Virus genome (UHGV): UHGV-1430915
Source of the DNA: a virus
DNA: 64,000 bases
Direction: 5' to 3' (one strand)
Below, piece after piece: positions 13,165 through 14,045 of the stretch; the first letter of the stretch is position 1, and each line of letters begins with the position of its first letter. Made by a program: the position numbers and the translations under genes. The notes beneath the pieces are model-generated. The model saw nothing but the letters and a program-made list of their open reading frames with translations, was not told the DNA's origin and made no database searches.

Positions 13165-13400
13165 CAGTTTCCACACATAACTTTATCCGAACTCGCGCGG
13201 GAGGCTCTCAACCGACTCCTTCCGGCGCTGGCAAGCTTTCGTCGGTGGTCCACATTAGTGCTCGGCCTTTGGCCTGCGCTATCGCTTCGCTCCCACACAT
13301 GTTAACAGTCCTGCATGTATGCACTTCTGTTATTGTGTGCACTATGGAGGCCCGGCATCTCGCCCCCCCGTAGGCGAGTGCCAATGAAGGGCCGACACTA
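13165..13400. other. GC-rich ORF-free island B; candidate structured RNA or repeat boundary
   Basis: GC-rich block with several hairpins (CTCGCC-N9-GGCGAG, GGCC-TTT-GGCC), only low-complexity overlapping ORFs; related to island A. Confidence 0.3.
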
Positions 13401-13537
13401 CCCATAATAAGTAATAAATTTAAAACATGGTACTTAGGATCTAGTATATTCTACATAAGTTAAGTATATGTACTTTAGTACCATAAGTACTAGATCTTTT
13501 ATTTTTATTATTTAGTTATTTTAGTTATATTCTTTAT

Positions 13538-13620
13538 GTGTCCGTATCACGGACAGTTAGTGTCCGTATTACGGGCAGATGTGTCCGCGTGACGGACAGT
13601 AGTGTCCGTATCACGGACAG
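13538..13620. repeat. four tandem 19-bp palindromes (TGTCCGT-N3/4-ACGGACA) at 21-22 bp spacing
   Basis: gtgtccgtatcacggacag at 13538, 13560 (variant), 13581 (variant), 13602; sits beside AT-rich tract 13400-13530 and HTH gene. Confidence 0.85.
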
Positions 13621-13694
13621 TTACTAACCTCTGTTCCAGAGTGAACATAAAACATACAAATCCTTATAGTACAGATGTTTAAGTTTTTACTGGT

Positions 13695-14045
13695 CTAACC
13701 AGTTGTTGACATTCGAATAACTTCTTCTGGTGGCAAAACTTTGGAAAATGTGCATCTTTTACCTCTCCCTTGTGTGGATATTTCAACCACTCCTGCACAT
13801 TCTAAAGTTTTAACGCACGCTGCTGCTTTTGTTTTCTTTATCCCAACATCTGCTGCAATTTTCCTTGTGCTTGGTGTGAAGCGTGAATTTTCTCCAAGCT
13901 TATACCAGTTGTGCAGGTAGCAGTATACGATCTTGTCATATAAGTCAAGAACAACAACCTCCCCAGTTGTGTCATTCAAAACTTTTGACATAGACAGTAT
14001 TTCAAGGGGGACTTTAAGATATAGCAGCTTATCCCCATCTTTCAT
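13695..14045 (-). CDS. putative helix-turn-helix DNA-binding protein
   Basis: 116 aa; segment STRKIAADVGIKKTKAAACVKTLECAGVVEI resembles winged-HTH recognition region. Confidence 0.5.
   Translation of the reverse strand: MKDGDKLLYLKVPLEILSMSKVLNDTTGEVVVLDLYDKIVYCYLHNWYKLGENSRFTPSTRKIAADVGIKKTKAAACVKTLECAGVVEISTQGRGKRCTFSKVLPPEEVIRMSTTG

Follow-up and report, generated by a model that had tools for sequence, protein, structure and literature searches.

What does a short tandem array of semi-palindromic sites, set between an AT-rich tract and the gene of a small winged-helix protein, do for an rV5-like phage? The question is raised by positions 13,400-14,045 of a stretch of 64,000 nucleotides from UHGV virus genome UHGV-1430915, which was analysed at its full length and is called the window here. 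An initial annotation of the locus had offered three functions, namely an operator array for a phage regulator, a partition or centromere-like site, and an origin with a DNA-unwinding element. The results described below favour, with somewhat better than even confidence, the last of these: the locus is a candidate iteron-type replication origin of an rV5-like phage, with a minimal initiator that consists of an N-terminal domain only.

More than 100 genomes of Vequintavirus (rV5-like coliphages) match the region at 97-99% identity, and records titled 'Campylobacter phage' fall in the same Vequintavirus group; judged by sequence, the window is from a Vequintavirus. For this virulent phage, no plasmid-prophage stage is described (PMC3606486). 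In the rV5 genome paper, skew analysis could not define an origin (PMC3606486), and neither a published origin nor an account of the array locus was found in the Vequintavirus/rV5/PVP-SE1 literature searched. Checks at the scale of a whole genome used the complete 137-kb genome of the close relative NHEP1 in addition to the window, and conservation was read from an alignment of 12 relatives, some of them metagenomic and with a protein 70-90% identical.

Anatomy and conservation of the repeat array

The array consists of four 19-bp semi-palindromic units, TGTCCG-N5-CGGACA, with start-to-start distances of 22, 21 and 21 bp (Table 1). Shuffled sequences held 0.03 unit matches on average and reached four in 0 of 100 shuffles, which confirms the four palindromic sites at 21-22-bp spacing that had been noticed initially. 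Their description as 19-bp palindromes holds for the length of the repeated unit, but the strict palindrome is a core of 17 bp, with arms TGTCCG(T)/(A)CGGACA and a centre of 3-5 bp. Since the G at one end of a unit does not complement the G at the other, each unit encloses an inverted repeat but is itself repeated directly, which makes the array polar. The search for further half-sites that the initial annotation had suggested showed the full palindrome to be unique, as TGTCCG-N5-CGGACA with at most one mismatch has no further site in the window or in NHEP1. The anatomy found is that of at least three tandem repeats of about 17-24 bp at helical-repeat spacing.

Conservation of the palindromes in close relatives, on which the initial proposal had been made to depend, is strong in the half-sites, where 2 of 48 columns vary. 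The corresponding counts are 8 of 20 for the 5-bp centres, 41 of 74 for the spacer between array and gene, and 15 of 138 for the AT tract. The variation in both half-site columns is T/C at the same position, with one of the changes leading back to the consensus, and the odd arm of unit 2 is back to consensus in phage JEP1. The arms of unit 1 are invariant in 8-12 relatives; the centre of unit 3 reads TCACG, CCACG, CTACG or TAATA (gene strand) among the relatives. Beside the protein that is 70% identical, unit 4 is kept as CTGTCCGTCACACGGACAG and the start of the next unit follows 21 bp on, where the contig ends; the remaining spacer there is unalignable. As far as the alignment tells, the half-sites are under purifying selection, unlike their surroundings, and fixed half-sites with drifting centres and flanks are the pattern expected if a protein reads two 6-bp half-sites one helical turn apart.

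Table 1. Features of the array locus and positions of the corresponding modules in sister genera (window coordinates unless a contig is named)
Feature	Position	Strand	Remarks
AT-rich tract, candidate DNA-unwinding element	13400-13537		A+T maximum, stability minimum; abuts unit 1
Two GATC sites (13438-13441; AGATCT 13492-13497) and four GTAC in the AT tract	13438-13497		Enriched over shuffles
Two tandem 9-mers TTTAGTTAT (ATAACTAAA on gene strand)	13511-13528		Inside the weakest part of the tract; read from sequence
Repeat unit 1 GTGTCCGTATCACGGACAG	13538-13556		Exact consensus, 0 mismatches; touches AT tract
Repeat unit 2 GTGTCCGTATTACGGGCAG	13560-13578		2 mismatches; imperfect right arm CGGGCA
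Repeat unit 3 GTGTCCGCGTGACGGACAG	13581-13599		3 mismatches; arms kept, centre deviates
Repeat unit 4 GTGTCCGTATCACGGACAG	13602-13620		0 mismatches; closest to gene
Spacer, gene stop codon to array	13621-13694		41/74 columns vary (12 relatives)
Hairpin CTGGTTAGACCAG (gene strand) that includes the gene's stop codon	13690-13702	-	No U-run after it; not called a terminator
116-aa winged-helix protein, rV5 ORF79/gp075, candidate repeat-binding initiator	13695-14045	-	N-terminal-type domain only
Sigma-70-like promoter, TTGACA-18-TATTTT with TG	14080-14109	-	Upstream of the gene; P76 in the rV5 RefSeq record
Sister-genus modules	L150 (Hena1) 32005-32410; L145 (EspYZU08) 6088-6594; L009 2309-2870; L011 2136-2600; L010 2077-2640

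The adjoining AT-rich tract

Positions 13406-13535 are 81% A+T and form the richest 130 bp of both the window and NHEP1, the next best reaching 75%. By nearest-neighbour energies the tract is the least stable duplex of the 137-kb genome at segment lengths of 40, 80 and 120 bp (z 4.3-5.8), and its weakest 40 bp, 13498-13537, touch unit 1. The AT-rich tract of about 130 bp described initially is therefore a stronger feature than was claimed, being the A+T maximum and the stability minimum of the genome, and easily melted A+T-rich DNA adjoins the repeats both here and in two other genera. The inverted repeats that had also been reported in the tract exist but are at chance level: there are three perfect 8-mer pairs, against a shuffle mean of 1.1, and 146 of 1000 shuffles reach three. 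Two short motifs are enriched instead, GTAC with 4 copies against 0.72 expected (0/1000 shuffles) and GATC with 2 against a mean of 0.06 (2/1000 shuffles).

A small winged-helix protein of initiator type

The small gene beside the array, in which a winged helix-turn-helix (HTH) had been suspected, is real and conserved, and its product of 116 amino acids (aa) has a winged-helix fold. The array starts 75 bp past its stop codon. Labels given by depositors to ORF79/gp075 (ORF, open reading frame) vary between 'replication initiation protein', 'putative transcriptional regulator', 'DsrC-like' and 'hypothetical'. Against Pfam, the protein scores 28.5 for DUF6945 (cut-off 28) and 24.8 for HTH_36, just below the cut-off of 25; in PHROGs it falls in a family labelled replication initiation protein and weakly matches the winged-helix portions of some larger initiators. 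Among PDB sequences, its profile matched 4RO3 (E 3.8e-6), the N-terminal domain of PLE RepA (PMC7145576).

The family is narrow. A full HMMER scan of 1.84 billion representatives returned 14 matches at E < 1e-3, a word-indexed protein search gave near-identical proteins only, no homologue at BLAST level was found outside Vequintavirus, and an IMG/VR search for relatives gave nothing that tblastn upheld. A deeper alignment was therefore assembled in steps, and the AlphaFold2 model built from its 21 sequences has a predicted local distance difference test (pLDDT) score of 81 and a predicted template modelling (pTM) score of 0.79; an earlier model from 5 near-identical sequences (pLDDT 40) was discarded. 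The best structural match is again 4RO3, followed by the RepA N-terminal domains of pTZ2162 and pSK41, including the iteron-DNA complex 5KBJ. The two plasmid domains align over 107-114 of the 116 residues, and ordinary winged-helix regulators over about 70-80 residues only. On this model, the protein is a stand-alone DNA-binding and oligomerisation domain of RepA_N-type initiators. The initial prediction of a dimeric winged-helix protein from the neighbouring gene on four sites of one DNA face fits these matches, the closest structures being initiator domains that bind iterons as dimers.

Recurrence of the module in other genera

No syntenic winged-HTH gene stands next to the phosphoesterase gene in other genera, but a repeat scan of the other-genus loci detected tandem 23-24-bp repeats in a nearby divergent intergenic region. 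Homologous proteins of 94-122 aa are present in Henunavirus, Mydovirus and Seunavirus (hhalign 88-98%), among them Hena1 gp088 (122 aa, 94%), a Mydovirus ORF of 120 aa (88%) and an unannotated 105-aa ORF of EspYZU08 (Seunavirus; 98%). A hidden Markov model (HMM) scan of six-frame ORFs counted two family members in Hena1, two in EspYZU08 and a single one in Vequintavirus.

Each repeat set of the sister genera stands between the small ORF and an AT tract, which in every module begins 0-7 bp from the last repeat. The repeats, 22-24 bp in the sister modules, differ from module to module (TGTCCG-N5-CGGACA, TATTCCC-N4-GGGTATA, AGCCTATGCTCAAATTGATA, TTTTGACAAATTTGTC, GACAAAAACG) and are followed by tandem AT-rich 10-16-mers, as they are by the 9-mers of the window; AGATCT/GATC recurs in the AT tracts of all sister-genus modules. 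The second family members, Hena1 gp130 and EspYZU08 6247-6594, have the layout of the window, with gene 3' end, repeats, AT-rich repeats and AGATCT/GATC. Here two repeats 22-23 bp apart precede tandem AT-rich 15-16-mers containing TAAAGAATA, which also occurs in the AT tract of the window. In three complete genomes of 137-149 kb, all five modules adjoin the first or second least stable 80-bp segment.

Gene and repeats change together between genera, and in the window a gene with an initiator-type fold lies close to the array. A hallmark of iteron origins is that a specific-binding protein stays linked to repeats of its own and to the DNA that melts most readily in the genome. Among the functions offered initially, the origin with an unwinding element is accordingly the best supported, since the stability minimum adjoins the array and the module recurs across genera.

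The sister genera carry two modules per genome. In one, the gene's 5' end faces repeats around its own promoter; in the second type the 3' end faces the repeats, as in the window, and this is the only type in Vequintavirus. The two modules of a sister-genus genome may be two origins. Beside the Mydovirus module, L010 encodes a 193-aa HTH protein with an uncharacterised C-terminal part (1512-2093, minus strand). Another protein, P0012 (228 aa), fuses a GIY-YIG nuclease domain to a DUF6945 domain and recalls the origin-directed nuclease Odn of ICP1, which reportedly borrows the DNA-binding domain of PLE RepA.

Distant homologues and shared half-sites

Distant homologues in metagenomic phage contigs of 70-80 kb are without a tandem array and have three dispersed palindromes TAGCCGCTTAGCGGCCA in the upstream intergenic region. 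In L015 (4153-4479) and L018 (4136-4487) the three copies are 130-182 bp apart in a large divergent intergenic region upstream of P0028/P0031, and they may be the binding sites or early-promoter elements of that lineage. The proteins of these contigs (P0010, P0017 and P0024-P0031; 174-217 aa) have acidic tails with a terminal aromatic residue (...DEAPF, ...DTEEPF, ...NDDMVLPF). Such tails resemble the partner-recruiting C-terminal tips of the single-stranded-DNA-binding protein (SSB) type, whereas the 116-aa Vequintavirus protein has no such tail.

A scan of IMG/VR for the motif gave mostly single chance matches. In the unrelated, high-GC viral contig L098 (IMGVR_UViG_3300037493_002298), three units (G/C)TGTCCG-N5-CGGACA(G/C) at 819-881 are spaced 21-22 bp apart. 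They lie inside a gene for 284 aa (ORF 438-1292), just past its HTH-coding part, and the product matches the PHROG 'replication initiation protein' and 'O-like' families. Discovery by the motif may partly account for the shared half-site, but not for the tandem array inside an initiator-like gene. A further contig, L025 (IMGVR_UViG_3300020050_011007), contains exact CTGTCCG-N5-CGGACAC four times, at 2914, 4402, 6737 and 7534; these matches are dispersed over 4.6 kb and are too many for chance in 13 kb.

Comparison with known origins

The best sequence and structure match, RepA of the Vibrio cholerae satellite PLE, is a RepA_N-family protein shown to be an initiator, which binds semi-palindromic iterons and is needed for satellite replication; the latter uses the T7-like replisome of ICP1 and an SF1B helicase (PMC7145576). 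As here, the repeats are semi-palindromic direct repeats in a non-coding region outside the initiator gene, and rV5 encodes both kinds of replication proteins, its T7-like replisome including Pol A and a primase-helicase, beside a PIF1/RecD-like (SF1B) helicase (PMC3606486). The two systems differ in that PLE RepA has a C-terminal domain whereas the protein here is the N-terminal domain alone, and in that PLE is a satellite borrowing the ICP1 replisome whereas the module here is in the phage itself. The PLE iteron, moreover, has 13-bp sub-repeats around a poly-A instead of 6-7-bp arms around a mixed 5-bp centre.

The RepA proteins of pSK41 and pTZ2162 (4PTA, 4PT7, 4PQL, 5KBJ) likewise have an N-terminal winged helix of about 120 aa with an oligomerisation surface, and the structural match spans nearly the whole 116-aa protein. 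Their four Rep boxes are semi-palindromic iterons, and the DNA is bent on binding (PMC5703833). The Rep boxes lie inside the rep gene, however, whereas the array lies downstream of the stop codon; the plasmid initiators also have an essential C-terminal domain that binds DnaG, and their hosts are Firmicutes. The RepA_N Pfam model does not match the protein here, although the fold of the N-terminal domain is present.

Lambda ori has four iterons of about 19 bp with internal dyads, bound by dimers of the winged-helix N-terminal part of O. The AT-rich DNA directly beside them melts, and activation is aided by transcription that passes through the origin or near it. The repeat anatomy of the window is alike. 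Lambda ori sits inside the O gene, and the C-terminal domain of O recruits P-DnaB; here, Phage_rep_O has no match and the array is located beyond the gene. Contig L098 combines the lambda-O layout with the half-sites of the window. Origins of the P1 oriR and pSC101 type are ordered as an AT-rich region with GATC, iterons and an autoregulated rep gene, which matches the sister-genus modules whose gene 5' end faces the repeats, and in pAMbeta1 (RepE) the origin directly follows the rep gene, the layout proposed for the window. The initiators of these plasmids have Rep_3 or other folds and 250-500 aa, and often need DnaA boxes, which were not found here beyond chance. The T7 primary origin and T4 oriF/oriG belong to lytic phages that use a replisome of their own; at these origins, the transcript for priming or opening comes from a promoter that precedes an AT-rich unwinding element. 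The window is similar in having a promoter and gene upstream of the AT tract with no terminator between, but the T7 and T4 origins, unlike the one proposed here, need no array for a sequence-specific origin-binding protein.

By analogy, the locus is best read as a candidate that would work like origins of the PLE/RepA_N and lambda types. By their defining features, neither family includes it, because there is no C-terminal domain, the family Pfam models have no match and the repeats lie outside the gene.

Several observations weigh against an origin. The protein ends at residue 116 and the N-terminal-domain fold fills it, so there is no counterpart of the RepA_N C-terminal domain, which in pSK41 (residues 200-319) is essential and binds primase (PMC5703833). 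Neither RepA_N (PF06970) nor Phage_rep_O is among the Pfam matches at E <= 1, and a consensus scan for DnaA boxes and integration host factor (IHF) sites around the tract gave nothing beyond chance. Co-variation of protein and sites was not seen within the genus, and results on replication, binding or marker frequency for these phages were not found in the literature searched. In ICP1, a distant relative of rV5 whose early origin has been placed near 60 kb by mapping in another isolate, the 50-70-kb region contains no convincing family member. One sister module type lies in a divergent intergenic region, around the sigma-70-like promoter of its gene, and further promoters of this class come after several of the sister-genus AT tracts; autoregulated transcription factors typically show this layout just as well.

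ICP1 and rV5 have head genes in common. The least stable segment of its 50-70-kb region (about 64573-64700) lies in a divergent intergenic region of L151 (ICP1 NC_015157, 64516-65171) beside ORF119, a protein of 133 aa with a marginal score against the family profile (E 0.054).

Transcription and the operator alternative

The leftward transcription unit is ordered as polynucleotide kinase, phosphoesterase, ORF79, array, ORF77-74, tRNAs, and lysis and structural genes; a DNA-metabolism unit, divergent from it, runs rightward at a distance of about 1.6 kb. In rV5, array and AT tract fall at about 65.0-65.3 kb. No terminator-like site was found between the promoter of the gene and the array, so transcripts from this promoter would traverse both the array and the AT tract. 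The hairpin at the stop codon is invariant in 12 of 12 relatives, including the one of 70% identity with the unalignable spacer. Neither the rV5 late-promoter motif nor the T4-late-like TATAAATA has a convincing match in the AT tract.

An operator array is the alternative that survives best, and it is retained as a rival that we consider unlikely. The winged-helix protein would either block read-through from the early leftward genes into ORF77-74, the tRNAs and the lysis and structural genes, or act via the curved AT tract on a promoter further downstream, and the tract would be promoter or UP-element DNA and not an unwinding element. The array is part of a long leftward transcription unit and is preceded by no terminator there, which would suit such a role, as would the annotation as putative transcriptional regulator in several records and the frequent use of winged-helix proteins in regulation. 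The repeats of Hena1, the Mydovirus phage and EspYZU08 surround the gene's own promoter, and the promoters past several AT tracts follow at 70-140 bp. Autoregulation is equally normal for iteron initiators, however, and in the window no sigma-70-like promoter overlaps the array: a simple consensus scan, which does not cover other promoter classes, found none on the gene strand at 13640-13100, and the sole match near the array, of 9/12, is on the other strand. Relatives do not conserve the -10-like TATTAT at the far end of the tract. Further operators, as a regulon would need, were not found in 137 kb (at most one mismatch), and the full-length fold match is to initiator N-terminal domains, not repressors. 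Finally, the association of all five modules with the least stable segments of their genomes would be unexpected for an operator.

Packaging and partition

A pac-like packaging site, with the protein as a small terminase subunit that oligomerises on the repeats, is very improbable. Some small terminases do place winged-helix domains on repeated sites, as lambda gpNu1 does at cosB; the small subunit is unannotated in these phages, and rV5 is described as circularly permuted. Furthermore, four independent metagenomic Logan contigs (L013, L139, L143 and L144) break off within the array or just where the AT tract starts. These ends are probably coverage or strain-variation breaks, an assembly effect to be expected at an 81% A+T tract that adjoins strain-variable sequence. 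Against packaging, the protein has no terminase match in PHROG or Pfam and has the fold of an initiator N-terminal domain, and the large terminase gene is about 4 kb from the array, beyond tRNA genes and several ORFs. In Hena1, the genome ends are annotated 519-bp direct terminal repeats, and the modules at 42.8 and 132.3 kb are 42 kb and 16 kb away from them.

A centromere-like partition or handcuffing site for a small adaptor protein, also among the functions offered initially, is scarcely credible: plasmid centromeres are typically phased short-repeat arrays bound by small dimeric proteins, but here the neighbours encode a phosphoesterase, a polynucleotide kinase and an RNA ligase and no ParA/ParM/TubZ-type NTPase gene is nearby, the phage is virulent, the link to the AT tract would be left unexplained, and nothing else was found in favour.

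A working model of the proposed iteron-type origin

For the origin with its minimal initiator, we infer binding of the protein to the array, one dimer to a unit, followed by melting, replisome loading and the start of replication at the locus. The 116-aa product would be made early from the promoter at about 14080-14109 and would dimerise as the N-terminal domains of RepA_N-family initiators do. Each dimer would occupy one unit, its recognition helices reading TGTCCG and CGGACA, whose centres are 11 bp, or one turn, apart. The period of 21-22 bp (two turns) would put four dimers on one face, so that the DNA is bent or wrapped, and the strain could be relieved by opening of the adjoining AT tract. 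The T7-type primase-helicase and Pol A would then assemble on the opened DNA, possibly with the SF1B helicase, and read-through transcription from the gene may aid opening or priming.

A more far-reaching version, possible but doubtful, is that this 94-122-aa protein of RepA_N N-terminal type, lacking a recruitment domain, is the whole origin-recognition factor of the Vequintavirinae, a subfamily of large virulent myoviruses. It would only mark and distort the repeats, which would let the weakest duplex of the genome open, and the primase-helicase would load itself, with or without the SF1B helicase. If so, the two modules of the sister genera, which differ in repeat specificity, would point to two origins addressed separately. 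One might serve early theta and the other late rolling-circle replication, both of which are reported for ICP1.

Neighbouring features

Between the AT tract and ORF77, positions 13150-13399 are GC-rich (51-62%, against about 43%), non-coding-looking and found in Vequintavirus only. ORFs of 31-65 aa are annotated there in some records, but reading frames are not kept: a G-run differs by 1 nt, and rV5 has a deletion of 18 nt; there is no Rfam match, and RNA folding z-scores are weak (-1.3, -2.2). An Rfam scan of 9500-15500 returned tRNAs only, apart from a sub-threshold match to rli43 across the region (22.5 against 100 bits), which was rejected as chance. A 99-nt tRNA-like gene at 10590-10688 (minus strand) has a 4-base anticodon (atcc) according to ARAGORN and an Rfam tRNA score of 35.5 bits. 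It is tRNA-Lys in the AlexBoehm annotation, is missing from that of rV5, and may be an intron-containing or degenerate tRNA.

Implications

Phages of the rV5 type are common in E. coli O157 biocontrol and in collections such as BASEL, and the locus of about 650 bp, a cis site with one small gene, is a precise candidate. If confirmed, it would be the first origin/initiator pair for the subfamily and would be useful in phage engineering and for mini-replicons, and the modules across genera would provide natural pairs of protein and repeat specificity. It would also mean that a RepA_N-type N-terminal domain works without the C-terminal domain that is essential in plasmids, and would thereby bear on how RepA_N proteins start replication, a question posed by the authors of the PLE study (PMC7145576).

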